A DNA stretch of 64,000 nucleotides, taken from assembly GCA_965232545.1 (NCBI GenBank), contig OZ246979.1, positions 5,734,077-5,798,076 of the forward strand, read 5' to 3'. The first letter of the stretch is position 1. Each line of letters begins with the position of its first letter. This stretch comes from Candidatus Poribacteria bacterium. Its GTDB lineage: Bacteria > Poribacteria > WGA-4E > WGA-3G. Below the pieces are notes generated by a model. The model made no database searches. It had not been told where the DNA came from and saw nothing but the letters and a program-made list of their open reading frames with translations. Positions 7,579 to 58,140 of the stretch are shown piece by piece. Position numbers and translations under genes: made by a program.

Positions 7579-9468
7579 GTGAAGCGTCAACTCTCTCCTC
7601 TCAGTTTAAAAGCCGTTTGCATCGGACTCCTGCTGATTCCAGCGAATGCGATGTGGCAGATGATGGGGTTACGCTGGGACATCGCGCACATGTCGATGAT
7701 CTCACTGCTCTATAACACGATCACGCTCCTGTTCGTGCTGACAATCATCAATCGCTTCGCGAAAAAAGTCTCGCCGCAATTCTCTCTTTCCACTGCCGAA
7801 CTCCTGACGATCTATGTAATGTTGTGCCTCTCGACCGCTATCGGTGGGCACATGTGCGTGCAGATCCTCCTCCCGATTATCAGTTACGCATTCGCCTATG
7901 CATCGCCAGAGAACGATTGGCAGTCCCTGTTTTGGCACTATGTCCCGTCATGGGCATCCGTCACCGATAAGCGAGGACTCGCAAACTTTTTCGATGGTGG
8001 CTCTACGTTCTACCCGCACCTTGAGGCATGGAGCACCCCGTTGTTATGGTGGGGACTCTTTCTCGCCGCACTGTTTTCGGTCATGCTCAGTATCAACTTC
8101 ATCTTCCGAAGGCAGTGGACCGAAAATGAGAAGTTGAGTTATCCACTGATCCAGTTGCCGTTGGCGATGGCGAATCCGAGGAGCGGGTTCTTCCGTAGCA
8201 AGGCGATGTGGATCGGGTTCGGAGTTGCGGCTGCTATTGATCTCCTCAACGGGGTGAATTACCTGTTCCCACAGGTGCCACGACTCAGTGGTATCCGCGC
8301 GTATGACATCGCCGACTTCTTTACCGTCCGTCCATGGAACGCCATTACGTGGTTCCCCATCGGTATCTATCCATTCGCTGTTGGATTGGCGTTTTTTATG
8401 CCGTTGGAGTTGTCGTTTTCGTGTTGGTTCTTTTACCTATATTGGCAGGCGTTCCGCGTATTGGGAAGTGCCGTCGGATTGACAGCACCGTTTCCGTATG
8501 CCGAGGAACAATCTTTCGGAGCATATATCGGTATCGGTCTGGTTGCGGTGTGGAGTGCGCGTCGCTACTTGACGCAAGTGCTCCGTAGGCTGTTTGGCGC
8601 GCGATCTACACTTGATGACGGAGATGAACCGATCTCTTACCGTGCCGCGGTGACATGGATGTTGCTGAGTATGGTATTCCTTGTTGTTTTCTGTTACAAA
8701 CTTGGGATGTCGTTGTGGGTCATTGCGACCTTTTTTGGGTTGTTCTTCGGGTTAGCGACAGGGATTACGCGGATGCGTGCCGAACTCGGATCACCCGTTC
8801 ACGACCAGCATTATGCCGGTCCCGACAGGATGATGTATTCGGTCTTCGGCGCGAAACGGCTCGGTGCGAGTAATCTGACGGGGTTGGCGTATCTCTACTT
8901 TTTCAATCGTGCCTACGATTGCCTGTTGATGCCGCACCATCTTGAGGGGTTGAAGATAGCCGAGCGTGCCGACATCGAAAACAAGACCTTCGCGAAGGCG
9001 GTCATCATCGCTATCGGTGTGAGTATCGTTGCGACGATCTGGGCATATCTACACGTCTCATATCAGGACGGTGTCTATACGGCATGGGCAGGCAGAGAGA
9101 CTTTCAGTCGGCTCGGTAGACGACTCGTCCAACCCGCGGGTCCCGATACCGCAGTGCTGAGCGCAGTCAGTGTGGGGACGGTTATGGCGATTCTCTTGGC
9201 TTTTTTCCGTAGTCGGTGGATGTGGATGCCATTCCATCCAGCGGGTTACGCCGTTACCAGCACCTTCACGATGAATTTCTTCTGGTTTTCGCTCCTCGTG
9301 AGTTTCATCTTGAAATGGATTATTACCAGACATGGCGGCATCGGCGGTTTTCGGAGGGCGGCACCTTTTTTCCTCGGTCTCGTGTTGGGTGAATTCGTCG
9401 TGACGACCTTCTGGGGCACCGTGGCGATTCTATTCCGTGTGGAGACCTATATTACGATCAATTTGTAA
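7579..9468 (+). CDS. Large polytopic membrane protein, uncharacterised family (paralog of 37489-39408)
   Basis: 629 aa, at least 12 predicted TM helices. About 45% identity to the 639-aa protein at 37489. Shared motifs include MPHHLEGLK and RAAPFFLGLVLGEF. The GTG start is uncertain. Confidence 0.6.
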   Translation: MKRQLSPLSLKAVCIGLLLIPANAMWQMMGLRWDIAHMSMISLLYNTITLLFVLTIINRFAKKVSPQFSLSTAELLTIYVMLCLSTAIGGHMCVQILLPIISYAFAYASPENDWQSLFWHYVPSWASVTDKRGLANFFDGGSTFYPHLEAWSTPLLWWGLFLAALFSVMLSINFIFRRQWTENEKLSYPLIQLPLAMANPRSGFFRSKAMWIGFGVAAAIDLLNGVNYLFPQVPRLSGIRAYDIADFFTVRPWNAITWFPIGIYPFAVGLAFFMPLELSFSCWFFYLYWQAFRVLGSAVGLTAPFPYAEEQSFGAYIGIGLVAVWSARRYLTQVLRRLFGARSTLDDGDEPISYRAAVTWMLLSMVFLVVFCYKLGMSLWVIATFFGLFFGLATGITRMRAELGSPVHDQHYAGPDRMMYSVFGAKRLGASNLTGLAYLYFFNRAYDCLLMPHHLEGLKIAERADIENKTFAKAVIIAIGVSIVATIWAYLHVSYQDGVYTAWAGRETFSRLGRRLVQPAGPDTAVLSAVSVGTVMAILLAFFRSRWMWMPFHPAGYAVTSTFTMNFFWFSLLVSFILKWIITRHGGIGGFRRAAPFFLGLVLGEFVVTTFWGTVAILFRVETYITINL

Positions 9469-9676
9469 AACTTCCCCTGCTGGCGAGGTTTCCTAACCTC
9501 ACCTATGAAGTAAACGTAGGAAGGATCTCTGAATCCCGATTACTGATGCCTAATCCTGAAAATCCTGATTCAGACTATGAATACCTACGTTACCCGATTA
9601 AATTCCTAATCTTCATTAGGGGTGTTATGTTTATAAATAGATGGCAACTTGCGTTATTATAGGACTTGGAGGTGAT

Positions 9677-10219
9677 ATGAAAGTCTTGGTCGGTTCCGAA
9701 AATCCAGTGAAAATTCAGAGCGTTCGGGACGGTTTTCTAACATTTTTTGAACATGTAGAGGTCGAAGGTATAAATGTTGATACAGGTGTTGCTGACCAGC
9801 CTATGAATGATGAGACATTTGAGGGTGCCAAACATCGCGCCGAGAACGTTAAGCGAATAAACGATCAACAGAACCTCGGCGCGACGTTTTTTGTCGGAAT
9901 TGAGGGAGGCGTTCTTCAACTGCAGGAGAGATGGTTTAGTGTGAATGTCGTTTATATTTTAGATAACCACAATCGAGACAGTTTTGCCACAACAGGACTT
10001 TATGAATTGCCGGGTGCGATATCGGAAGAACTTCTGATTGGAAAAGGATTAGGACGTGCCATGGGTGAACTTGCCAATGATACCTACGCCGCACGCGAAC
10101 ATGGCACCGTTGGGTTTTTGACAAATGGTAAGATGGATAGGTTCCAAAATCAGGTCCAAGGCATAACTTTAGCATTAATCCCTTTTGTGAATGACACCCT
10201 TTATTTTCCTTCTTCCTAA
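9677..10219 (+). CDS. yjjX: Inosine/xanthosine triphosphatase (YjjX family non-canonical NTPase)
   Basis: MKVLVGSENPVKIQSV aligns with the E. coli YjjX N-terminus. GGAGGT RBS is 5 nt upstream of the ATG at 9677. The 12-codon extension to 9641 in the ORF track is unlikely. Confidence 0.7.
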   Translation: MKVLVGSENPVKIQSVRDGFLTFFEHVEVEGINVDTGVADQPMNDETFEGAKHRAENVKRINDQQNLGATFFVGIEGGVLQLQERWFSVNVVYILDNHNRDSFATTGLYELPGAISEELLIGKGLGRAMGELANDTYAAREHGTVGFLTNGKMDRFQNQVQGITLALIPFVNDTLYFPSS

Positions 10220-10260
10220 TGGGCAACACAGAAAATAGATTGGATTGAGCGATTAAAGAC

Positions 10261-10336
10261 AGAGATTCATCGCTGACTGCTAATTGCTAATCGCTAACCG
10301 CTAATTGCTATTCTTCTGACCGCCGACTGCCGACCG
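10261..10336 (+). repeat. Heptamer direct-repeat array (CTRAYYG x10)
   Basis: ctgactg ctaattg ctaatcg ctaaccg ctaattg ... ctgaccg ccgactg ccgaccg ctgaccg, lying between the convergent 3' ends of yjjX and the Gfo/Idh/MocA gene. Confidence 0.7.
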
Positions 10337-10351
10337 CTGACCGCCATATAT

Positions 10352-11431
10352 TCAATCGATTTCCCATTCCTGTAAACCGAGCGGCACAGGCTCAGGACGT
10401 TCCGTCGTGCTTTCGATGACGACGTGCTCACCCGTTTCAGAAGATTTGTCGAAAGCGCACATCACCTCAAGCACATGATATGCCAACGCGCCGTTCGCAC
10501 GGTGCTTGCGTCCCGAAAGGATAACCGACGCCATATCAATGACCCCAATCATCCGAGCATTGTTCGGGAAAGGGATTTCCTCGGCTTCCCAATCACCCCC
10601 TGCCGGACACACATTCACGGGACCCCCGAAACCGTTCGGATCAGGCACCGTCATTGAGCCGGTTTCACCGTAGATTTCGATGCACGGAAGACTGTGCCGC
10701 CACATGTCGAAACTCATAATCATTGTGATGATCGCACCGTTCTGGAATTCGATTGAGCCGGTGAGGTGAGTTGTAATTTTGACAGGGATACGTAAACCGC
10801 GCACGGCTTGACTCGTCGCGACACGTTCTTCAAAGGCTTTCGTCGTAATCGCGGCAACGCGTTTGACGGGACCGAGAATATTGACGAGGGCAGTCACATA
10901 ATAAGGCCCCATATCCAGCATCGGTCCGCCGCCGAGGTCGTAGTAAAAGGCCGGATTTGGATGCCAACTTTCGTGTCCGTGTCCGCACATAAAAGCGGTG
11001 CCAGCGATAGGTTTCCCAATTTTCCCCGCGTCCAGTGTTTGCCGAGAAGTCTGGATACCCGCACCGAGGAAAGTATCGGGTGCCGATCCGACGCGTAATC
11101 CCTTTTCAGCGGCGGTATCAATGAGTTGTTTTCCGCTCTCGGTGTCCACGCCGAGCGGTTTTTCGCTATAGACGTGTTTACCGGCTTCCAAGACTTGTAA
11201 GCCGACTTCGACGTGTGCCCGCGGGATGGTGAGATTCACAACGAGTTCGATCTCATCGTCTGCGAGCAATTCATCGACGCTGCATGCGTGGGAGTTGTAT
11301 TTTTCGGCTTGCGCCTGTGCGGATTCCATTCGGAGGTCGGCACAGGCTTTGATTTCTAAAATGTCGGTTTTTCGTGCCCCTTCAAAGTAGGCACTGCTGA
11401 TGGTTCCACAACCAATAATTCCAATTTTCAT
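10352..11431 (-). CDS. Gfo/Idh/MocA family NAD(P)-dependent oxidoreductase
   Basis: N-terminal Rossmann motif MKIGIIGCGTIS and the typical C-terminal alpha/beta domain. Confidence 0.8.
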   Translation of the reverse strand: MKIGIIGCGTISSAYFEGARKTDILEIKACADLRMESAQAQAEKYNSHACSVDELLADDEIELVVNLTIPRAHVEVGLQVLEAGKHVYSEKPLGVDTESGKQLIDTAAEKGLRVGSAPDTFLGAGIQTSRQTLDAGKIGKPIAGTAFMCGHGHESWHPNPAFYYDLGGGPMLDMGPYYVTALVNILGPVKRVAAITTKAFEERVATSQAVRGLRIPVKITTHLTGSIEFQNGAIITMIMSFDMWRHSLPCIEIYGETGSMTVPDPNGFGGPVNVCPAGGDWEAEEIPFPNNARMIGVIDMASVILSGRKHRANGALAYHVLEVMCAFDKSSETGEHVVIESTTERPEPVPLGLQEWEID

Positions 11432-18331: not shown

Positions 18332-18560
18332 TTTTAGAGTCAATAACCCCAAGCTAAAGCATGGGGCTTGTGCGAAGCGTATGCCAAACGTTCACTCCAC
18401 AAGTTAAACTATTTTCTACAGTAAAATATCGCAGTATCTGGGCGTGGCAGCCTAAACAATGTTTCGGATACTCCCCTCGTCTGACTCACTCTAAGATATT
18501 GTGATCTGTAAGGGGCAATATACAACCCGTAAGGGAGATTACAAACTATGTTTGTTCCGG
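18332..18560 (+). ncRNA. Candidate omega-RNA region for IsrB (placement by analogy with IscB/IsrB systems)
   Basis: IscB/IsrB guide RNAs are encoded immediately upstream of, and overlapping, the ORF 5' end. The region opens with the IS-end hairpin CCCCAAGCTAAAGCATGGGG at 18347-18366. Boundaries not determinable by eye. Confidence 0.3.
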
Positions 18561-19600
18561 TGACGAGTCAAACAGGTCAGAAGTTGATGCCTACGCGTGC
18601 TAACAAGGCGGGTGTGCTGATTAAGAAAGGTTTCGCCACGCCCTATTGGTCTAATGGTATATTCTGTATCCGGCTTAACTATGCTATCGAAGACGCATAC
18701 ACACAAGATATAGTCGTAGGTGTAGACCCCGGTAGTAAGAAGGAAGGCTTTACCGTCAAATCAGAATCTCATACCTATTTGAATGTGCAAGCCGATGCTC
18801 ATAGGGGTGTCGGTAAGAAAGTTGAAAAACGTCGAGAGTTGCGTAGGAGTAGACGCTCTCGTAAATGTCCTAATCGCAAGAATAGAACCAACCGTCTTGC
18901 GAATAGAGAGCGTATCCCCGTAGGCACGCGTGCAAGGTGGGATTGGAAACTTCGTATACTTGATTGGCTTTCAAAGTTGTATCCACTCACACACGTATGT
19001 GTTGAAGATATTAAGGCACGAACAATAGAACGTGCTAAGAAATGGAATACCTCTTTTAGTCCACTTGAAGTCGGTAAGCAGTGGTTTTATACCGAAATCC
19101 GAAAGCAGTGGCAGTTGCTAACACTTCAAGGGTGGGAAACCAAAGAGATACGCGATAGCTTAGGACTCAAGAAGTCGTCAGACAAGATGTCAGAAACTTT
19201 TGACGCACATTGCGTAGATTCCTGGTGCTTGGCGTATCACACGGTTGGTGGTTCGGCTGTCCCTGATAACACGGACTTAATGTGTGTCTCACCGATACCG
19301 ATAAAGCGAAGAGAGTTGCATAGGCAACAGGAAGCGAAGGGGGGTAAACGCTCACGGGTGGGCGGCACTGTATTAGGTCAAGGCTTAGTCAAAAATACAT
19401 TGATTAAGCATGTCAAATACGGTTTAACACGACTTGCTGGCGTTAACGCAAAGGGTTTGTTTTCAATATACAGTATGGGAAACAAACGATTAACCACAGG
19501 GGCGAAGCGGTCTGATTTTAAAGTGCTAACACGCCTCAACTTTTACTACAGGAGTGGGCATTCCTCCCCAACCTAAAGGATGGGGTCTCCTGCCCGAAGA
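18335..19600 (+). mobile_element. IS200/IS605-family non-autonomous element encoding IsrB (no tnpA)
   Basis: Bounded by related subterminal hairpins: CCCCAAGCTAAAGCATGGGG at 18347-18366 and CCCCAACCTAAAGGATGGGG at 19566-19585, which show a compensatory G:C to C:G swap. Lies between two diverged ThuA paralogs. Confidence 0.55.
18548..19576 (+). CDS. isrB: IsrB (HNH-less IscB; OMEGA RNA-guided nickase)
   Basis: 342 aa. N-terminal PLMP-like GQKLMPTRANKAGVLIKKG...IRLNY, RuvC-I VGVDPGS, Arg-rich bridge helix RRELRRSRRSRKCPNRKNR, RuvC-II VCVEDIK, RuvC-III FDAHCVDSW. Only about 45 aa separate RuvC-II and RuvC-III, with no Cys/His HNH insert. Aligns block-for-block with the OgeuIscB N-terminal half. 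Confidence 0.7.
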   Translation: MFVPVTSQTGQKLMPTRANKAGVLIKKGFATPYWSNGIFCIRLNYAIEDAYTQDIVVGVDPGSKKEGFTVKSESHTYLNVQADAHRGVGKKVEKRRELRRSRRSRKCPNRKNRTNRLANRERIPVGTRARWDWKLRILDWLSKLYPLTHVCVEDIKARTIERAKKWNTSFSPLEVGKQWFYTEIRKQWQLLTLQGWETKEIRDSLGLKKSSDKMSETFDAHCVDSWCLAYHTVGGSAVPDNTDLMCVSPIPIKRRELHRQQEAKGGKRSRVGGTVLGQGLVKNTLIKHVKYGLTRLAGVNAKGLFSIYSMGNKRLTTGAKRSDFKVLTRLNFYYRSGHSSPT

Positions 19601-50684: not shown

Positions 50685-50966
50685 GGTAGTATTTTCACTA
50701 TTGGAGTAGCTATTGGATGAACTTTTTTTCAGGGTGTTTTTAATTCCAAACGTAGCATAACATCAAGTTCAGCGTGCTATTAAGTATATAGCATTGCGAA
50801 TTTATTGTCAAGTTTAAATTTTTTAGAGGAATATGGTGTTTTAGGTGAGGCTCTCCGTTCTTTTGTAGAGCGGAAACGGATGAAAAACGCGGTTAATATT
50901 GCCCTTGAACCCTCTCCAGTCTAAAGACTGGAGATTCCTTTTGTTCCTCGTGGGAACATTCTCCGC

Positions 50967-51584
50967 TCAAGCGGAACAACATCGGACTTCTAAGCGAATA
51001 CCGACGGGCGATGCCATAGTCGCCGCTACTGGGACACCTAAGTGTCCAAGATACTTTTGTCTTATATTGATTGCGCCTACACCATCGCGATGATATGTAA
51101 AGCCACATTTACAGGTGTAGTTACGATTAGTAGGCTTCTTTCTATTGCCACAATGCGGACAAGTCTGCGAAGTGTAAGACTCATCAATCACTTCCACTTT
51201 GATACCTAAAGTCCTGGCTTTGTAGGTGATGAGTTGTGTGATTTTACCAAATGCCCACTGGTGTAACTTTTGATTCGCATGCTTGCCATAGTTGATATTT
51301 TCACGAATGCCAGTTAAATCGCCAAGCACAATGGTGCCAATACCACGCGATTCACACAACTTTACAAACTTTGTAGTGTGTTTGTGTAAGCCGTCCATTA
51401 TCTGGTTATCAATCTTTTTGATGCGTTTCCATTTGCGTTTCACCAGATGCCACCAGCGTTGAGAATGACGTTCGCACCTATCTATTTTCTTGCCAAATGA
51501 CGCGATTACCTTATGCCTCAACCGGTATAGACTTCTAATATACCGCCCATTAAAGATGTTAGTAATCACACCATCATGACTCAC
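50967..51584 (-). pseudogene. tnpB: N-terminally truncated TnpB (IS200/IS605 OrfB) remnant
   Basis: Retains RuvC-II IVLGDLTGIRE, zinc finger CPHCG...CKCG and RuvC-III HRDGVGAINIR, but lacks the RuvC-I region. Downstream hairpin CTCCAGTC-taaa-GACTGGAG at 50915-50934. Confidence 0.65.
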
Positions 51585-51848
51585 TTTTTTTTAGAAATTT
51601 GACGAATGACAAAATTTGTGTTATTATATATAGAAAATAGAGCGAATTTTGCTGTTAGAACACGCTCTGTGTAAGAGGGAGCAACCTAACGCTCCTCTTG
51701 AATTGCTAAATTCTTAATTTGGATACACCTTGATTGTAGTAATCTTATGAGGGAAAGCGGGGTTGCTAACTTCGTTTTAGTGTTTCATTTTTTTAATAGC
51801 AGTTTTCAAAATTTGACGTTTACGTCGAAATCGAAGAGGGAAAATTAT

Positions 51849-54542
51849 ATGTATTACAGTAAATATCTCAAACCGATCATCTTCGCACTCAGTATCTTTG
51901 TAGTTATTGCGATGTGTACGTTTACAACGGTCATTGCACAGGAAGAAGCCAGCGATGCGGAGGAAACAGAAGCCACCGCGGACGAGGCTGAAGCATCTGA
52001 AGAAGCATCTGAGGCGGATGCGCCTGTGAGACTTGAGAGTCTTGTCGTGGTGGGATCGCGTTCCCAACCGCGCTCCGTCTTGGATTCAGCGGTCCCGATC
52101 GATATTGTGTCAAACGAATCCTTTCAAAAACAGGGTGGCGCAGATCTACCGGATTTATTGAGAGCTTTGGTGCCGTCTTATAACATCAATACACAGCCGA
52201 TTAGCGATGCGTCAACAGTGGTCCGTCCGGCGAATTTACGGGGACTTGCCCCAGACCATACATTGGTGTTGGTCAACAACAAGCGGCGACACCGTGCCGC
52301 AGTGATTCACTGGCTCGGGAACGGTCTGTCTGATGGTTCACAGGGACCTGACCTGGCACCGATTCCCGCAATTGCGCTGCGACAGGTGGAGATCCTCCGT
52401 GATGGCGCATCCGCACAATACGGTTCTGATGCCATTGCCGGCGTGATGAACTTTCAGCTGAAAGACAACCACGAAGGCGGTTCGTTTGAATTCAAACCCG
52501 GTATCTACCAATACGGCGATGGTCGACAATTTGCTGTCGCAGGGAATATCGGTTTAGGGAATCCAGACGCGTGGAGTAGCCTCAGCTTTGAATACGGTGG
52601 TGCAGATCCGACCATCCGGTCTGTCCAACGTAATGATGCCATAGCCATGATTAACGCAGGCAATTTTAGTGTGAAAGACCCGGCGCAAATTTGGGGACAA
52701 CCGATTATAGAGAATGACATCAAATTGTTTGCCAACTACGGTGCCACCCTCACAGATACCATCAATTTCTATGGACATGCCAACTACGCCCGAAAGCGGG
52801 TTGAAGGCGGATTCTATTTCCGTAACCCGAATACCCGCGGCGGTGTGTTTAGTACGACCGGTGGCGATACGTTGCTCGTCGGGGATATGCGGGGTTTGAC
52901 AGCAGAAATGGCGGATTGGGAAACCCGAAAAGCGGCAGCAGAGGCTGCTGGGCAGGAGTTTACTGAACTGTCACCTCACGATGCTGACGATATTCCGATA
53001 ACCAATCACGTCCCTGATCCCGAACGTTTGCAAGCCGTCAAGAGTGACCCGAATCTATTCACATTCCAAGAGATGTTCCCAGGCGGATTCACACCCAGAT
53101 TTGGGGCATTCATGTGGGATAGTTCCGTCGTCGTTGGTGTTAAAGGCACCGCGCTCAAAGACACATTGGGTAAGGACTTAACGTGGGATCTGAGTGGTTC
53201 TTTTGGACGGAACCATGCTGATTTCTTTATCTTCAACACCGTTAATGCTTCGCTCGGACCAGACACACCGACATATTTTGATCCGGGCGACTATATCCAG
53301 ACGGATTATAACCTCAACTTCGATGTAACCTATCCGCTCAGCGACATGGTGTTCCTCGCTTCTGGTTTGGAATATCGGGACGAAGGATTTGAAATCATAG
53401 AGGGCGAACGCGAGTCGCATCAGATCGGCCCCCTCGCAGCGCAAGGCTTTACGGCTGCCTCCAACGGATTTTCGGGGTTCAGTCCAGTTGCGGCAGGCAA
53501 GTGGCACCGTTACAACGTTGCCGCATATCTGGAGACTGAAATCAGACCGATTGATCCGCTCCTGATCGCACTGGCTGTGCGCGGTGAACAATTTGAGCTT
53601 TTCGGTGGTGCCCTGAACTACAAAGTCGCTGCAAACTACAAGGTTACGGAAACGATGCGGTTGCGGGGAAGTTATAGTACCGGGTTCCGCGCTCCCACAC
53701 CCGGGCAGCAAAATACGTTCAACATTACCACTGAATACGATTTTGCGAAGGGGGATCTCGTTAATAAAGGAACAATTCCTTCCACCAACCCTGCTGTCGA
53801 TGTTGTGACAGGTAAGGAAGATAACTCGCTTGACCCGGAAACATCAAATAACTTCTCAGGTGGATTTACCGTTGATATTTTGGGCGTAAATGTCACGATG
53901 GACTTTTTTGATGTTCGGTTGAAAAACCGGTTATCGGTGTCACAACACTTTACATTGACTGACGGACAGAAGGCAGATCTCATCGCCGCAGGTGTAACCA
54001 GTGCAGCGAATCTGGAAACATTCCAGTTCTTTATCAATGACTTCGCTACTACAACCAATGGTATTGACTTTGTCGTTACAGCACCAATACCCAACGGAAA
54101 CCTCATCGCCGTGTATAACTTCACGAACACCACAGTTACCGATCACAATCCGGACACGCTGGACGATCATCGAATCAGGGAACTGCAAGAGAATTTACCC
54201 GCACACCGCGCCAGCGCGACTGTTATTCAATCCATAACGGACATGTGGTCGGTCCTCGGGCGCGCCAGTTATTTCAGTGGTTGGTTCGATTCTGAAGATT
54301 TCTTACAGAATCCAGATGTGCCAGGCACTGGAGAATACACTGGAAGGGTTATTTTCGACTTAGAAACCACTTACACCGTCGGGTCGGGAATCGCTCTCAC
54401 GCTCGGTGGAAGAAATATCCTTAATACCTTTCCCGATGAAAATCCGAATGGTGCTGATTCTGTCGGTAACAAATACGGACAGTTCAGTCCGTTCGGTTTT
54501 GATGGGGCGTACTGGTATGCCAAAGTCGGATACCAATTCTAA
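51849..54542 (+). CDS. TonB-dependent outer-membrane receptor
   Basis: Signal peptide, plug domain, long beta-barrel, and a C-terminal aromatic residue (...AKVGYQF). Start MYYSKYLK at 51849. Confidence 0.8.
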   Translation: MYYSKYLKPIIFALSIFVVIAMCTFTTVIAQEEASDAEETEATADEAEASEEASEADAPVRLESLVVVGSRSQPRSVLDSAVPIDIVSNESFQKQGGADLPDLLRALVPSYNINTQPISDASTVVRPANLRGLAPDHTLVLVNNKRRHRAAVIHWLGNGLSDGSQGPDLAPIPAIALRQVEILRDGASAQYGSDAIAGVMNFQLKDNHEGGSFEFKPGIYQYGDGRQFAVAGNIGLGNPDAWSSLSFEYGGADPTIRSVQRNDAIAMINAGNFSVKDPAQIWGQPIIENDIKLFANYGATLTDTINFYGHANYARKRVEGGFYFRNPNTRGGVFSTTGGDTLLVGDMRGLTAEMADWETRKAAAEAAGQEFTELSPHDADDIPITNHVPDPERLQAVKSDPNLFTFQEMFPGGFTPRFGAFMWDSSVVVGVKGTALKDTLGKDLTWDLSGSFGRNHADFFIFNTVNASLGPDTPTYFDPGDYIQTDYNLNFDVTYPLSDMVFLASGLEYRDEGFEIIEGERESHQIGPLAAQGFTAASNGFSGFSPVAAGKWHRYNVAAYLETEIRPIDPLLIALAVRGEQFELFGGALNYKVAANYKVTETMRLRGSYSTGFRAPTPGQQNTFNITTEYDFAKGDLVNKGTIPSTNPAVDVVTGKEDNSLDPETSNNFSGGFTVDILGVNVTMDFFDVRLKNRLSVSQHFTLTDGQKADLIAAGVTSAANLETFQFFINDFATTTNGIDFVVTAPIPNGNLIAVYNFTNTTVTDHNPDTLDDHRIRELQENLPAHRASATVIQSITDMWSVLGRASYFSGWFDSEDFLQNPDVPGTGEYTGRVIFDLETTYTVGSGIALTLGGRNILNTFPDENPNGADSVGNKYGQFSPFGFDGAYWYAKVGYQF

Positions 54543-54582
54543 ACCTGTCTCGTGAAAAGTGCTGAATATGCTTTTCGTAAAA

Positions 54583-54612
54583 GGCGCGGTTCCAACCGCG
54601 CCTTTTCAATTT
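54583..54612 (+). terminator. Intrinsic terminator after the TonB-dependent receptor gene
   Basis: GGCGCGGTT-cc-AACCGCGCC followed by TTTTCAATTT. The stem matches the REP-like family. Confidence 0.65.
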
Positions 54613-54699
54613 GTTTAAGCGTAGAAAATCGTGTATGCGAGTCGCTACTTCCGTAGCCGTGCTATGTCTATGGAAAGGGATCTTCATTCACCTTGAATC

Positions 54700-56135
54700 A
54701 GCTTAAATTTATCAATCTTCCGTCAAAACCCCATGCTTTAGCTTGGGGATGTAGACGGCGTATGAGTTTGTCGTTGAAAAAAGATTTGACATTTCGTGAA
54801 AAATGTCGTATAATTGATAGTATCAAGTTGGCAGACAGTTGAAGCGTAATCGCAAGGTTACGTGTCTGCCTACCCACTTCAACGGGGTTAAAGACTTGAT
54901 ACTTGATAGTCCATGAAAACCTATAAATACCCATTAGGGAAACAATCTAATACGATCCGCATTGGCAATCTGCTTGACGACATGTGGCAAGTTCATGAGT
55001 ATTTCCACAAGTGGCAAGACCAAAGATACAAAGACGGCTTGCCGTATGCGAACTATAACGCCATGTCTGCTCACGTGAAAACGTTGAAACGCACCACACA
55101 CCCACATTGGAAGGCGTTGCCAAGCCAAGCGATTCAAGCAGAACTCGAACGTATTGATAATGCGTATCAAAGGTTCTTTGATAAACTCGGTGGCAAGCCC
55201 CATATTAAAGCCCGCCATAAGTTTAAGTCTATCACACTTAAACAAACTGGATATAAACTGACGAATAATCGTATTACGCTCACATTTCGTCAATGGGCTA
55301 AGGGTAAGTGGAGGTTTGATAAAGTGCCATATACTTTCCATAAACACCGGCAATGGCATGGAACTATCAGTCGTATCACGATTAAGCGAGATAACTGCGG
55401 TGATTATTGGATTTGCATAACAACCACCTACACAGATTTCAAACTGCTGCCAGCAACAGGTAAAAGCGTTGGGGCAGACTTCGGTATGAAAGACGCGTAC
55501 TTGACACTTAGCACGGGTAAGAAGAAACAACACCCACAACCCTTGAAACAGTCCTTGAACAAACTTCGGTCTCTCAACAAAGACCTTTCTCGTAAAGTGA
55601 AAGGTTCTAACGGTTGGTGGCGGTGTGTGAGCCAAATCGCCCGTCTGTATCGGAAAATAAGCAACCAACGCAAAGATTTCCATTGGCAACTCGCCTCTGA
55701 ACTTTGTAAGAAGTTTGATACGATTGCGATTGAAACGCTGAACCTTGACGGTATGAAACGCTTGTGGGGACGTAAAGTCTCCGACCTTGCGTTCTATCAG
55801 TTTGTTGAGATATTGAAGTATAAGTGTCAAAAACATAAGCGTCTTTTGAAGCAAGTCGGTCCATGGACGGCGACAACGAAACCGTGTAGTGAGTGTGGTT
55901 TTCATAACGAAACGCTAACTTTGGACGATAGGCAGTGGACGTGTCCTGACTGTGGTTCACACCACGATAGAGACATCAACGCTGCGATAAACATATTGCG
56001 GGCAGGGATAGCCATCACTTGACGATATGCCTTGTCTCTGACAAGGGAAATGCCCGCAGGTGGAGCGACAGTTAGACGGTGGACTCTCCGAGAAAACCGC
56101 AGTTGCGACGAAGCCGAAGCCCCTGCCTTTAGGTA
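54700..56135 (+). mobile_element. IS200/IS605-family tnpB-only element (IS1341-like)
   Basis: Left-end hairpin CCCCATGCTTTAGCTTGGGG at 54729-54748, which is the reverse complement of the IsrB-element end hairpin. Consensus promoter TTGACA-17-TATAAT at 54785-54813. Right-end hairpin CCTTGTC-tct-GACAAGG at 56030-56046. Confidence 0.7.
54913..56022 (+). CDS. tnpB: TnpB (RNA-guided RuvC-like endonuclease, IS200/IS605 OrfB)
   Basis: RuvC-I GADFGM, RuvC-II IAIETLNLDGMKR, zinc finger CSECG..CPDCG, RuvC-III HDRDINAAINI. Confidence 0.85.
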   Translation: MKTYKYPLGKQSNTIRIGNLLDDMWQVHEYFHKWQDQRYKDGLPYANYNAMSAHVKTLKRTTHPHWKALPSQAIQAELERIDNAYQRFFDKLGGKPHIKARHKFKSITLKQTGYKLTNNRITLTFRQWAKGKWRFDKVPYTFHKHRQWHGTISRITIKRDNCGDYWICITTTYTDFKLLPATGKSVGADFGMKDAYLTLSTGKKKQHPQPLKQSLNKLRSLNKDLSRKVKGSNGWWRCVSQIARLYRKISNQRKDFHWQLASELCKKFDTIAIETLNLDGMKRLWGRKVSDLAFYQFVEILKYKCQKHKRLLKQVGPWTATTKPCSECGFHNETLTLDDRQWTCPDCGSHHDRDINAAINILRAGIAIT

Positions 56136-56851
56136 GTGGGTGCTATCACTGTGATCATACCAACGTCTGCCGTTGTGAATTCCGCGGAGTCGCTGATACG
56201 GATCATAATCGCGAATAATCTGGAAGAACCGATCCCAAATGGATAGTAGACGGGTTCGTTTTTGTTGTAAGAGTAATCTTTTGGAAAAATGCACATCCGC
56301 ATCTTGTTAAAGGGCGCATCAGCAAGGGTTTCGAGCGTCTGTTTTTCCATCGCTTCCCCTTGATGTGCCCAAGCATAACACGTCGTTCCGAATTGATGGT
56401 AGGGTGTATCGTCGGCATAGCGGAGATAGAACTCTTTATAGACGCGGACAGGTCCGTGATTTCCATCGGACGGTGCAACGCACGTAAACTGCCCTGTCTT
56501 ACCGTTAAGTTCAGCGGTGTTACTTTTTGTGATATACGTCCATTCGCCGACTGCGTCGGGCATAAACCGGATTTTGTAAACACCGTCTCCGTCGTAGAAA
56601 CCCTGCGGCTCGAACGTCTGTCCTTCGTTTGTATCACGGTGTTTAAATTCTGCTGTTAATTCAACCTCAGTGAACGGATTTCCTGTGTCCGGTCCACTCA
56701 GAGTTACTTCATATACTCCCCAGCGTTCAACCATATTCACCTCCGATTTTGGTGCATTTTGCGGGTTTCCAAAACTTGTTGTTAAAAAGTGTGTATTTAC
56801 GAGCGAAAACGCAACCGCAAAAACCACTATTGTCAAAATTTTTCTTATCAT
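56129..56851 (-). pseudogene. DUF5060/DUF4038-type glycoside-hydrolase-like gene, frameshifted and 3'-truncated by the tnpB element
   Basis: N-terminal DUF5060 signature [11 protein letters not shown]...[15 protein letters not shown]. After ...[15 protein letters not shown] the homologous sequence continues in another frame ([28 protein letters not shown] 55902-56294) and then runs into the IS right end. Confidence 0.5.
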
Positions 56852-56884
56852 TAAAAATCTCCATAAATGAAAACTTTGGGGTGG

Positions 56885-57961
56885 CTATGGAGGACTTATA
56901 CACCAGTCTGCCCGTTCCTTGAACTCCGCCTGATAGTCGGAACGCCACTTGGAGATACTCGACCCACCGGGTCCATCAACATAGTGATTAGTGTTCTTGA
57001 CTCGTTTGAATTGTCCGCCCCAACTTTCTTGGGTGGGGTCATCGGGATCGTTCAACCCGCGGTTGGCACTCACCAGCCACAGAAATGAAGGCGAATCCCC
57101 TTCACAGACTCCAGTGCATCCCATCCCTTCATGCGGATACACATCGCAGAGCGGTCCGTGGTTATTGCGAATGTGCTCATTGACCCAGGCGAGGTCTGAA
57201 ATCGGATCACGTCCGCCGAACATACCTTGATAAGTCTTTTGCGAGTGAATGATGAACAACTTTGGAAAATTATCGCGTAACCAACCAATCGTGCCGTCTT
57301 GGGTCGCAATTTGATGGATACGCAATTTGCTTAAAAACGCTTCCAGATCGGCAGCACTGCGCGTATTCTGGACCTTCCACACCGCTTGTGCTACAACGCT
57401 GCAATCGCCCCAGATGCCAATATAGATCGGACGAGGATCGGGCTTGTCCACGATGCTGATGATTGCTTCCGAAGCCTCACTGTTTTTGCCTTCGCCAATA
57501 TTGACAGTGCCCTTTTTGCCCCAGGTGCCGCTACGCCCCTGAAAAGTAACCGAACGCAGAGCGTCCGAGGTCGGATACAAGGTATCATGTTTTTTTAGAT
57601 TCTCATATACCATTTCATAGCGATCAATCACATCCAGTATGTTCTGTTTCTTAGCTATGTTGGCAAAGGTGCCCGCCGAAGCTACCAGTGCTTCTATGTC
57701 AAACTCATTGGCATACAATAGGAATCGAACTATCGACTGCATATCATCTGGATCACTCTTTTGATCGTTGGGCACATTTCCACCCTTGACAACGCCAATC
57801 GGTGGAAAATCCGAAATCATGATGACACGCAATCTATTCGTTGACTGGTTCTCACTTTCTTTGCGCTCCATATTCGTCTCCTGTGCAAAAGGGATGGCAG
57901 TAAATAGTAGCAGGATTATTACTGTGAAATAGAGTTTGAAATTCTTCATTTCTCTCAACAT
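56885..57961 (-). CDS. DUF1593 domain protein (nucleoside-hydrolase-like secreted protein)
   Basis: RFLLYANEFDIEAL, HGPLCDVYP, EGDSPSFLWL and ADWC blocks are characteristic of DUF1593. Has a signal peptide. Confidence 0.65.
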   Translation of the reverse strand: MLREMKNFKLYFTVIILLLFTAIPFAQETNMERKESENQSTNRLRVIMISDFPPIGVVKGGNVPNDQKSDPDDMQSIVRFLLYANEFDIEALVASAGTFANIAKKQNILDVIDRYEMVYENLKKHDTLYPTSDALRSVTFQGRSGTWGKKGTVNIGEGKNSEASEAIISIVDKPDPRPIYIGIWGDCSVVAQAVWKVQNTRSAADLEAFLSKLRIHQIATQDGTIGWLRDNFPKLFIIHSQKTYQGMFGGRDPISDLAWVNEHIRNNHGPLCDVYPHEGMGCTGVCEGDSPSFLWLVSANRGLNDPDDPTQESWGGQFKRVKNTNHYVDGPGGSSISKWRSDYQAEFKERADWCISPP

Positions 57962-58140
57962 CGGTTGATCTCCTTAATGCGATATTTGATCCCGACTACT
58001 TTTTTGATACACCGCTTCCACCGACGGCTAAGCATATACTCACCGAAGCCCCCGATGTGCTGAAAAGTTCCATTGGAGAATTGGCTCCTAAAGGGTTGCA
58101 AGCGTCGATAAAAACGTGAGTTCGATAAAAAAAGAGGAGA

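Follow-up and report, generated by a model that had tools for sequence, protein, structure and literature searches.

In a Candidatus Poribacteria genome, a tnpB-only IS200/IS605-family element with a covarying pseudoknotted 5' leader occupies the span between two ancestral TTAT sites

The reference for the end architecture of IS200/IS605-family elements is IS608 of Helicobacter pylori, which carries both tnpA and tnpB, has at each end a subterminal imperfect hairpin with an unpaired or bulged T, and inserts 3' of a TTAC-like tetranucleotide with neither inverted repeats nor target duplication. ISDra2 of Deinococcus radiodurans encodes a TnpB of solved structure (8bf8/8ex9/8h1j) with a RuvC D/E/D triad and a zinc finger; its transposon-adjacent motif (TAM), TTGAT, lies 5' of the left end, and a pseudoknotted scaffold RNA covers the 3' end of tnpB and the right end and takes its guide from the flank. 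In Salmonella IS200, a stem-loop in the tnpA 5' untranslated region sequesters the ribosome-binding site and is thought to limit translation, and two Rfam families, IS605-orfB-I (RF03065) and HEARO (RF02033), are likewise structured RNAs tied to IS605 orfB/tnpB and iscB genes. Geobacillus stearothermophilus harbors several tnpB/iscB-type elements with similar ends, ISGst1-5, which are presumed to be served by one TnpA in trans and which have protein-less PATE-like derivatives (Meers et al., PMC10055086). That article also describes the tnpB-only, non-autonomous state as the commoner one among IS605-family elements and reports that the TAM is common to TnpA and TnpB and that donor joints are cleaved; a text-term search of the article returned no structured 5' leader.

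The locus described here lies in a 64-kb stretch of Candidatus Poribacteria DNA (the window) and contains a complete, 1,437-bp tnpB-only element of the IS200/IS605 family at 54713-56149 on the plus strand. Homology to 80 other copies of the element started at ~54708 and stopped sharply at 56149, the flanks of the copies being unrelated and diverging at both ends, and homology to an element-free relative, L166, was broken at 54712/54713 and returned at 56150. The insertion sequence ends on which the initial annotation depended were thus present in the multi-copy alignment, and the search for further copies that it had proposed fixed them at 54713 and 56149, next to a TTAY motif. The tnpB gene, which had been called intact at 54913-56022, is indeed a 369-amino-acid open reading frame with matches to OrfB_IS605 (PF01385; 2.4e-20) and Cas12f1-like_TNB (PF07282; 6.4e-23), the latter being the zinc-finger domain. 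Its best relative of solved structure was ISDra2 TnpB (E ~1e-43 over the full length, a remote similarity); in the full-length alignment with 8bf8 (E of 1.4e-43) the intact RuvC residues D189/E274/D354 stand opposite D191/E278/D361, and this D/E/D triad was invariant in the TnpB alignment A4. The family occupies 80 genome loci in Candidatus Poribacteria, at 76-92% amino acid identity and with several copies per genome, and 7,137 database relatives of the protein were found at E<=1e-20. A look-up of the exact TnpB sequence returned no database record, and literature searches on Poribacteria TnpB returned nothing relevant. Taken together, the above-described results make it very probable that the element at 54713-56149 is intact and, having tnpB only, non-autonomous (IS1341-like), and that it belongs to an IS200/IS605-family lineage that has undergone heavy amplification in Candidatus Poribacteria. 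It sits between two ancestral TTAT sites. The element is of a known kind and routine; its sole unusual part is a conserved pseudoknotted leader that has no Rfam match.

Both ends carry subterminal imperfect hairpins in place of terminal inverted repeats, and insertion was 3' of a specific tetranucleotide without target-site duplication, as in IS608. The tetranucleotide, TTAT at 54709-54712 (plus strand), is the TAM and TnpA target; it is part of the flank, outside the element, was already present at this site in L166, and has no duplicate after the right end. A TTAY motif preceded the left end in 42 of 44 copies (TTAT in 32, TTAC in 10), and other insertions agreed, L083 lying after TTAT and L065 after TTAC. 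The left end forms a bipartite hairpin at 54720-54758 on the plus strand, with an outer stem CCGTC/GACGG around an inner imperfect hairpin, CCCCATGC-TTTA-GCTTGGGG (54729-54748), that contains a T-T mismatch; RNAalifold gave compensatory changes in both parts, with pair counts such as CG:27 UA:14 (outer stem) and GC:35 CG:6 (inner stem). At the right end, the plus-strand hairpin CCCCTGCC-TTTA-GGTAGTGGG (56120-56140) has a bulged T, was 99.3% paired with compensatory changes in 5 of 8 pairs, and is followed by the terminal TGCTATCAC up to 56149; the terminal GGGTGCTATCAC was invariant across ~70 copies. The spacing is IS608-like, the left-end hairpin lying 16 nt from the cleavage site and the right-end hairpin 9 nt short of the element's end. 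Unlike IS608, the element carries tnpB only, and its left-end hairpin is nested in an outer stem. An exact copy of the inner left-end hairpin occurs at 18347-18366, and an IsrB element at ~18339-19600 in the window has the same hairpin as the tnpB element; at the gathering score over the whole window, no Rfam match was obtained for an IsrB RNA. We also considered whether the left flank (54543-54712) held a degraded older right end, but the local alignment score of 42 was not significant compared to 31.9 +/- 4.7 (maximum 50) for shuffled sequence, and this flank is the native 3' end of the disrupted gene plus intergenic DNA.

A Y1 (HUH) transposase is not encoded by the element. A tblastn search of the window with an IS608 TnpA sequence gave no match, and there is no room for tnpA in the element because the 200 nt before tnpB are taken up by the left end, promoter, and leader. 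Since no tnpA was found in the window, mobility would depend on TnpA supplied in trans. A tnpA gene adjoined tnpB only in distant (36-50% identical) gut/rumen-type loci and in L099; L065 has the tnpB element inserted within a tnpA gene. The Geobacillus elements of PMC10055086 offer a parallel, matched here by the hairpin common to the IsrB and tnpB elements and by a TnpB-less mini-element in L081 that resembles their PATE-like derivatives, but the phylum and TAM differ and the search turned up no cognate TnpA. Judging from IS608, ISDra2, and the ISGst elements, a TnpA acting in trans would recognize the left- and right-end hairpins of the plus strand, excise the element as single-stranded DNA, and insert it 3' of TTAY. 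The internal promoter would give a single RNA comprising leader, tnpB, and guide-RNA scaffold, with its transcription start and ends as predicted, and TnpB would bind the 3' scaffold and use a guide read from the flank starting at 56150. After excision, TnpB would cut the resealed joint, TTAT followed by TGTGATCATACC, and recombination would restore the element.

The guide-RNA (omega RNA) scaffold occupies ~55998-56149 on the plus strand, an approximate 5' limit that overlaps the last 25 nt of tnpB. It consists of a pseudoknot, GCGGGCA/TGCCCGC (55998-56004/56051-57), a closing helix, GATAGC/GCTATC (56007-12/56142-47), a variable stem, further stems at 56065-69/56102-06 and 56084-86/56090-92, and the right-end hairpin at 56120-56140, and so resembles the ISDra2 scaffold in its pseudoknot and its extent. 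The variable stem, CCTTGTC-tct-GACAAGG at 56030-56046, had been recognized before and correctly placed in the omega RNA region; it is internal to the scaffold, and the right-end hairpin of the type bound by TnpA in IS608 is the one at 56120-56140. The support for the scaffold comes from covariation only: across 57 copies, 89% of cells were paired, compared to 36-41% when the partners were slid, and both sides had changed in 26 of 44 pairs, but the single-sequence fold was no better than shuffled (z = -0.39). Rfam 15, including IS605-orfB-I and HEARO, left the scaffold unmatched at E<=1 in 54000-57500 and at the gathering score in the whole window. All copies diverged directly past 56149, and in L166 the sequence beginning at 56150 directly follows TTAT. 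As the right end is 56149, the guide starts at 56150, and the flank TGTGATCATACCAACGTCTG (56150-56169, plus strand) would serve as both guide and target, its length being a predicted one. The sequence abutting the right end had been correctly viewed as the guide and target region, but ~56135-56155 placed it partly inside the element. The element supplies, as judged from its sequence, a well-delimited and probably active TnpB together with its guide-RNA scaffold; the TAM is TTAY, and the source is an uncultivated phylum of sponge symbionts. In comparison with ISDra2, the TAM differs, tnpA is missing, and a conserved promoter and a 93-nt pseudoknotted leader are present.

The gene that the element disrupts was characterized by alignment with intact homologs, as had been suggested, and L166, L081, and L082 together placed both its frame change and the insertion site. 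In L166, gene order is the same at 93-97% identity (window 51633-54712 aligned to L166 5788-8865 at 93.4%), and the gene is intact at 8837-11296 on the minus strand. It encodes a secreted, glycosidase-like protein of 819 amino acids with DUF5060-DUF4038(Apiosidase)-DUF5605-PKD-Laminin_G_3 architecture, a larger gene than the DUF5060/DUF4038 one assumed initially, and is convergent with a TonB-dependent receptor gene. L164 and L165, which hold the closest orthologues of this receptor, were of no use as empty sites since their downstream genes differ. Compared to L166, the element stands in place of exactly 1,455 nt that are bounded by two ancestral TTAT sites: the breakpoints, 8865/8866 and 10320/10321, are each immediately 3' of TTAT, the 8866 side of the replaced segment carries GTGCCGCTTC, and the right junction in L081 reads ATAA, the reverse complement of TTAT. 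To the left of the element remain only the last 29 nt of the gene (54684-54712, minus strand; about 9 codons plus the stop, KFKLIQGE*, from the L166 alignment), and to its right lies the 5' remnant, at 56150-56851 on the minus strand, as defined by tblastn of homologs and blastn against L081, L082, and L166. The minus-strand DUF5060-type frame had been reported to run into the right end; this is borne out, as the open reading frame runs from 56851 down to 56129 (240 amino acids; PF16586, 2.3e-24) and enters the element by ~20 nt. Compared to the L166 orthologue, the remnant retains codons 1 to ~205 and ~294-325; because codons ~206-294 and ~326-810 are missing, it is a pseudogene, in which DUF5060 alone was detectable and no full-length DUF5060 plus DUF4038 (plus DUF5605) frame exists. 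The switch of frame that had been noted at 56250-56290 is real but lies just outside that range, at 56236-56246, and is not a frameshift: a 265-nt microhomology deletion has its junction at 56236-56244 (L166 10416-10680). This deletion is separate from the element insertion and further degraded the gene.

Loss of the 3' part of the gene had been attributed to simple insertion and truncation, and the loss itself is confirmed. A single simple insertion accompanied by an unrelated small frameshift would agree with the right junction, where intact relatives have a normal TTAT target site, and with a frame that changes upstream of the element. It would leave the missing 3' part just beyond the left end, but only the last 29 nt are there, 1,455 nt are absent, tblastn found no other match to the downstream part of the gene in the 64-kb window, and the frame change is the 265-nt deletion; nor is the 1,455 nt a lineage-specific insertion in L166, because L081 and L082 carry the same sequence. 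We regard this explanation as extremely improbable. An assembly artefact, in which two copies of the element flank an intact 1,455-nt segment and the repeat was collapsed by the assembler, is distinctly unlikely. In its favor, collapse and recombination give identical products, the family is highly repetitive in these genomes, and gene calls are fragmented in the neighboring assemblies L081 and L082. Against it, the exact 240-amino-acid remnant protein is recorded on a contig of 5.89 Mb, a size that suggests long-read assembly, which would bridge a repeat of 1.4 kb; two copies would in any case interrupt the gene twice, and the independent 265-nt deletion indicates that it was decaying already. 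It is scarcely credible that TnpB has been domesticated as a nuclease-dead, RNA-guided (TldR-like) regulator with its guide aimed at the neighboring gene. The guide region runs antisense to what is left of the DUF5060 gene, and the promoter of the element is strong, but the RuvC D/E/D residues and zinc finger are intact, as are both transposon ends, each genome holds several copies with unrelated flanks, and the adjacent DUF5060 gene is a decayed pseudogene. The favored reading is of an intact element that replaced DNA between the two TTAT sites, most likely by one of two routes. Two insertions in the same orientation, one at each TTAT site, may have been followed by homologous recombination between the copies, or TnpA may have catalyzed an adjacent deletion that fused the right end to the following TTAT; either route would yield an identical product, and there is one genome from which to judge. 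The comparison provides a clean natural case in which an IS200/IS605 element has taken the place of DNA lying between two TAM sites, and illustrates how such "scarless" elements can still erode genes by copy-copy recombination or TnpA-mediated adjacent deletion.

The element was correctly said to carry a tnpB gene with its own promoter: along with the Pfam matches to TnpB, the promoter is conserved across copies. The promoter, of sigma-70 type, is a TTGACA-17-TATAAT sequence on the plus strand that matches the consensus at 12 of 12 positions and lies at 54786-54814, one base to the right of the initial 54785-54813. The match is not due to chance because it is conserved across 44 aligned copies, with TTGACA at -35 in 28, TATAAT at -10 in 34, and a 17-nt spacer in 40. 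Six nucleotides past the conserved -10 box, at the predicted transcription start, begins a 93-nt pseudoknotted leader (54820-54912, plus strand) that ends 11 nt before the tnpB AUG, which lacks a Shine-Dalgarno sequence. Its five helices are A (54820-29/54893-902), B (54830-36/54864-70), the pseudoknot helix C (54838-44/54877-83; 99.7% paired, with up to four pair types), hairpin D (54845-51/54856-62), and E (54872-75/54885-88). The 3' strand of the closing helix is duplicated, the second copy ending 4 nt before the AUG, and this alternative register, A' (54821-28/54901-08), covaries too. The long-loop hairpin GGCAGACA...TGTCTGCC proposed in the initial annotation does pair (54830-54837/54863-54870), not as a standalone hairpin but as helix B of the conserved five-helix leader. 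Across copies, 97.6% of cells were paired, compared to 32-42% with the partners slid, and both sides had changed in 21 of 31 pairs; the single-sequence minimum free energy was -35 kcal/mol (z = -4.87). Occurrences were scored with a custom pseudoknot descriptor, and the leader preceded tnpB in nearly all copies from Poribacteria and sponge metagenomes and recurred, with unrelated stem sequences, upstream of a TnpB subfamily that is only 40% identical. No Rfam family, whether riboswitch, ribozyme, IS605-orfB-I/II, or HEARO, matched the leader at E<=1 in 54000-57500 or at the gathering score over the whole window, and literature searches on tnpB untranslated regions, pseudoknots, or translation returned nothing relevant. 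We regard the leader as an undescribed add-on RNA of the TnpB element.

Several identities for this structure were weighed. It might instead be a single-stranded DNA transposition signal, an extended left end, given that IS200/IS605 transposition works via folded single-stranded ends and that the structure lies within the left 200 nt of the element and is kept in the TnpB-less mini-element. This is unlikely, however: the structure begins 6 nt after the conserved -10 box and ends beside the AUG, the left-end hairpin at 54720-54758 is separate and distinct from it, and in IS608 a subterminal hairpin alone suffices for TnpA. It also contains numerous G-U (G-T) pairs, such as UG:26/UA:14 and CG:20/UG:18, which would turn into C-A mismatches on the opposite strand, and it is because of this abundance of G-U pairs that we read the leader as RNA from the plus strand. 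An HDV-like self-cleaving ribozyme, considered in view of the nested pseudoknot, was rejected by inspection of helix geometry. Such ribozymes combine a P1/P2 pseudoknot with a 3-bp P3, an L3 of 5-8 nt that forms P1.1, and a catalytic C in J4/2; helix D, at the P3 position, has 7 bp and a non-conserved tetraloop, so that there is no room for P1.1, P4 is lacking, and the outer helix A encloses the would-be cleavage site. Pairing of the leader with the right end and guide-RNA scaffold (ACCCAC-GTGGGT and UGAUAG-CUAUCA) was likewise discarded, as this complementarity was not conserved across copies. A comparable case is the IS200 tnpA leader, also a structured leader beside a start codon in an IS200/IS605-family element, but that is a simple hairpin, whereas the leader here, which precedes tnpB, is a pseudoknot of five helices with its 3' strand duplicated, and the two share no sequence similarity. 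We infer that the leader RNA most likely tunes tnpB translation and/or mRNA stability via its two alternative closing helices. A more specific proposal, which we put forward tentatively and consider possible rather than probable, is that it is a new class of cis-acting regulatory RNA in the left-end module, in which an A/A' switch set either by a cellular signal or by TnpB, a multi-copy nuclease that would thereby regulate itself, would control the amount of nuclease made per copy. A strongly covarying, promoter-proximal pseudoknot with a duplicated strand beside the start codon, common to TnpB subfamilies only 40% identical, provides a testable handle on nuclease regulation and may be relevant to the expression of such TnpBs for genome editing. 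The leader may also have a role beyond translation, such as RNA stabilization or processing for guide-RNA production, which is conceivable because the TnpB-less mini-element in L081 retains the leader fold with its pairing intact; this argues either against a purely translational role or for a recent deletion in that mini-element.

The ORF at 54913-56022 (+) encodes a 369-aa protein matching Pfam OrfB_IS605 and the Cas12f1-like TNB zinc-finger domain, in agreement with an initial annotation, made from the sequence alone, that had called an intact tnpB here. Relatives of this TnpB number in the thousands; the nearest are 80 to 92% identical and almost all come from Candidatus Poribacteria assemblies. 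A genome scan yielded 80 loci, often several per genome. Its best solved relative was ISDra2 TnpB (8bf8/8ex9/8h1j; E about 1e-43, end-to-end alignment), whose catalytic D191, E278, and D361 align with D189, E274, and D354, and on this basis the nuclease looks intact.

The initial annotation had advised searching for other copies to define the ends and the transposon-adjacent motif (TAM), and comparing the window with the 80 loci by blastn did so. Homology among copies began at about 54708 and stopped sharply at 56149. On the right, GGGTGCTATCAC was the invariant terminus in all copies, with unrelated sequences beyond; on the left, all 44 copies with a complete end had N-TTA-Y followed by CAATCTTCC..., the preceding tetranucleotide being TTAT in 32, TTAC in 10, and another in 2 (TTAY in 42/44). 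Because an element-free relative (L166) shows TTAT to be part of the target, we assign 54709-54712 to the TAM, which places the element at 54713-56149 (1,437 bp). Each end carries an imperfect hairpin whose loop is TTTA and in which a T is unpaired, at 54729-48 on the left (CCCCATGC-TTTA-GCTTGGGG, nested within an outer stem CCGTC/GACGG) and at 56120-40 on the right (CCCCTGCC-TTTA-GGTAGTGGG), with numerous compensatory substitutions among copies in both. A tblastn search of the 64-kb window with an IS608 TnpA sequence found no tnpA match, and the element is therefore of the non-autonomous, tnpB-only type, which PMC10055086 describes as the more frequent condition among IS605-family elements. 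With hairpin ends, TAM-specific insertion without target duplication, an intact TnpB triad, a 3' guide-RNA scaffold, and many copies with unrelated flanks, it is a member of the known IS200/IS605 tnpB-only type, lacking tnpA.

The element had also been said to interrupt and truncate a minus-strand DUF5060 gene. A 240-aa ORF running from 56851 down to 56129 does carry DUF5060; in tblastn, homologue residues 1 to about 205 aligned to 56851-56237 and residues about 260-295 to 56255-56148 in another frame. Through relatives of the upstream TonB-dependent receptor we reached L166, a Poribacteria contig of 4.82 Mb that shares 93-97% identity and gene order with the window and has no element: a TonB receptor (+), then an intact minus-strand 819-aa gene (DUF5060-Apiosidase/DUF4038-DUF5605-PKD-Laminin_G_3), then Sde182-like and nucleoside-hydrolase genes. 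By blastn, window 51633-54712, 56150-56244, and 56236-57989 correspond to L166 5788-8865, 10321-10415, and 10681-12434, respectively, which indicates that the element stands in place of 1,455 nt (L166 8866-10320). Both L166 break points (marked by slashes) lie directly 3' of TTAT, at ...AAATTTAT/GTGCC and ...CGGCTTAT/TGTGGTCAT, and the right-hand site is the same in locus L081; the gene's final 29 nt (KFKLIQGE-stop) are kept at 54684-54712. A second, independent lesion removed 265 nt (L166 10416-10680) between short CAA(A)T repeats, and this deletion, rather than a simple frameshift, is what had been read as a frame switch. Between them, the replacement and the deletion make the window gene a pseudogene missing codons about 206-294 and about 326-810. 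Alignment with intact homologues, as had been recommended, thus placed both lesions and upheld the insertion and truncation, while revising the loss to 1,455 nt between two TTAT sites.

At the junctions, the left end is joined to one TAM and the right end to the base after the second TAM. We infer that either of two routes could have yielded this same product: two copies may have inserted in the same orientation at the two TTAT sites and then recombined, or TnpA may have paired right-end cleavage with a cut at the downstream TTAT, releasing the 1,455-nt piece by chemistry symmetrical to normal excision. Two genuine copies collapsed during assembly would mimic a replacement exactly, but we consider this unlikely, since the contig on which the remnant protein is recorded is 5.89 Mb long.

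Orthologues of the gene differ elsewhere. In L083 (4790-6345; metagenome scaffold PANK22-1_SAMN12291699_METAG-scaffold_568), another TnpB element (403 aa, 40% identical) sits in it after TTAT in the opposite relative orientation, at most about 5 nt from where the 265-nt deletion lies in the window; the remainder of the gene is also missing in L083. The proximity could be coincidence, or the deletion in the window could be a scar left by repair after an element was once excised and the site cleaved there. The 819-aa gene is called as overlapping ORFs in L081 (6001-8459; 283+536 aa) and L082 (6001-8497; 286+209+337 aa), suggesting assembly frameshift errors or independent decay in several Poribacteria. 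In the loci with the closest TonB-receptor orthologues (97-98% aa identity; L164, 8765 onward, and L165, 8774 onward), the genes downstream of the receptor (window 54611 onward) differ: methyltransferases follow in one locus and another TonB receptor in the second, which marks DNA past the receptor terminator (54579-54606) as a rearrangement-prone boundary among close relatives.

Alignment of 57 copies over their final 230 nt supports a putative guide-RNA scaffold spanning about 55998 to 56149. It comprises a pseudoknot (GCGGGCA/UGCCCGC), a closing helix immediately 5' of the guide (GAUAGC/GCUAUC), two more stems, the right-end hairpin, and a stem, CCUUGUC/GACAAGG (56030-46), whose length and sequence vary while pairing is kept; the initial annotation had seen this last hairpin and taken it for a mark of the omega-RNA/right-end region. 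Pairing held in 89% of cells versus 36-41% with partners slid 1-3 columns, and both sides had changed in 26/44 pairs. Folded as a single sequence, the scaffold did not outdo shuffled controls (z = -0.39), and its support is thus purely comparative. No Rfam family matched the scaffold (54000-57500 at E<=1; whole window at gathering score). Since copies end at 56149, the guide must start at 56150 (TGTGATCATACC...), not at about 56135 as previously placed.

Upstream of tnpB, the promoter is a 12/12 match (TTGACA-17-TATAAT) as claimed, at 54786-54814 after a small correction. In 44 copies aligned over their left-hand 200 nt, the -35 was TTGACA in 28, the -10 TATAAT in 34, and the spacer 17 in 40; most copies have an extended -10 (TGGTATAAT), the window copy (54806-54814) being TCGTATAAT, without TG. 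The 93 nt from promoter to AUG covary heavily, and we propose a leader of five helices: A (closing; 54820-29/54893-902), B (54830-36/54864-70), D (54845-51/54856-62), E (54872-75/54885-88), and C (54838-44/54877-83), a putative pseudoknot formed between the E loop and the strand separating B from D. The long-loop hairpin noted earlier, GGCAGACA/TGTCTGCC (54830-37/54863-70), is present and would be helix B. The features first noted were real, with coordinates slightly off; what had to be revised in their reading was the kind of frame change, how large and exact the loss was, where the right end lies, and what the two hairpins mean. Pairing held in 97.6% of cells versus 32-42% with partners slid, both sides had changed in 21/31 pairs, helix C was 99.7% paired with at most four pair types per position, and 0/500 shuffles matched the covariation score. 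The helix A 3' strand occurs twice in tandem (ACTTGAT-ACTTGATA). Covariation with the 5' strand holds for the second repeat as well (96% paired), and that repeat stops 4 nt 5' of the AUG, ahead of which there is no Shine-Dalgarno sequence. Frequent G-U pairs favor an RNA on the + strand, and the window leader folds at -35 kcal/mol (z = -4.87). No Rfam family matched it (54000-57500, E<=1), and literature searches on Poribacteria plus TnpB and on tnpB plus UTR/pseudoknot/translation returned no account of it; we could not find a description of this conserved promoter-plus-pseudoknot leader for the family.

A pseudoknot descriptor coded in Python found the motif, identically placed, in almost every Poribacteria locus, as well as in sponge-type metagenome loci (TnpB 48-92% identical), and in a subfamily only 40% identical (L083, L138, L141, L144, L163), where most stem sequences differ and, in L083, the AUG lies inside the second copy of the duplicated strand. 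The descriptor gave no match in the tnpA+tnpB elements of gut and rumen metagenomes, which are 36-40% identical. In L084-L088 and L113 (about 1390-1500), TnpB is 84-92% identical and helices B, C, and D are wholly different (GGACA/CAACCAA/GCACGCT-GCAA-GGCGTGT); either leaders change far more rapidly than the protein, or elements swap leader modules with one another. L081 (10900-11560, -) holds a PATE-like mini-element without protein or detectable TnpB coding remnant, with TTAT, left-end hairpin, promoter, a divergent right end, and a leader of entirely different sequence with helices B, C, and D intact. We infer that the leader acts in cis, setting tnpB mRNA translation and/or stability through a switch between its two alternative closing helices, possibly controlled by a protein such as TnpB or by a ligand. 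Because the TnpB-less mini-element retains the fold, the leader may have a role that is not tied to translation.

Other mobile elements occur in the window and at other loci. A second IS200/IS605-type element (18339-19600) has an ORF (18548-19576, +), encoded on the opposite strand from the hairpins at its ends, for a 342-aa IsrB-like protein with an RRXRR domain and without HNH (best PDB match IsrB 8dmb, E 4.6e-30); Rfam HEARO had no match in the 180 nt upstream. Of its two hairpins, the one at 18347-18366 is identical to that of the tnpB element's left end, the one at 19566-19585 differs by compensatory changes (CCCCATCC-TTTA-GGTTGGGG), and the latter end also begins CAATCTTC; one transposase in trans probably serves both elements. 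A truncated TnpB (ORF 50967-51584, -; 205 aa), which consists of just the C-terminal RuvC/zinc-finger half and shares about 26% identity with the main TnpB, lies in a 679-nt segment (50905-51583) that replaces 102 nt of L166 (5597-5698) immediately upstream of the TonB-receptor gene, and is a second, decayed insertion. In L065 (2502-2816), a Y1 transposase (tnpA) gene is cut short at 104 aa by a tnpB element of the window's family that sits after a TTAC within it; these genomes thus do contain TnpA genes, and TTAC does serve as a target.
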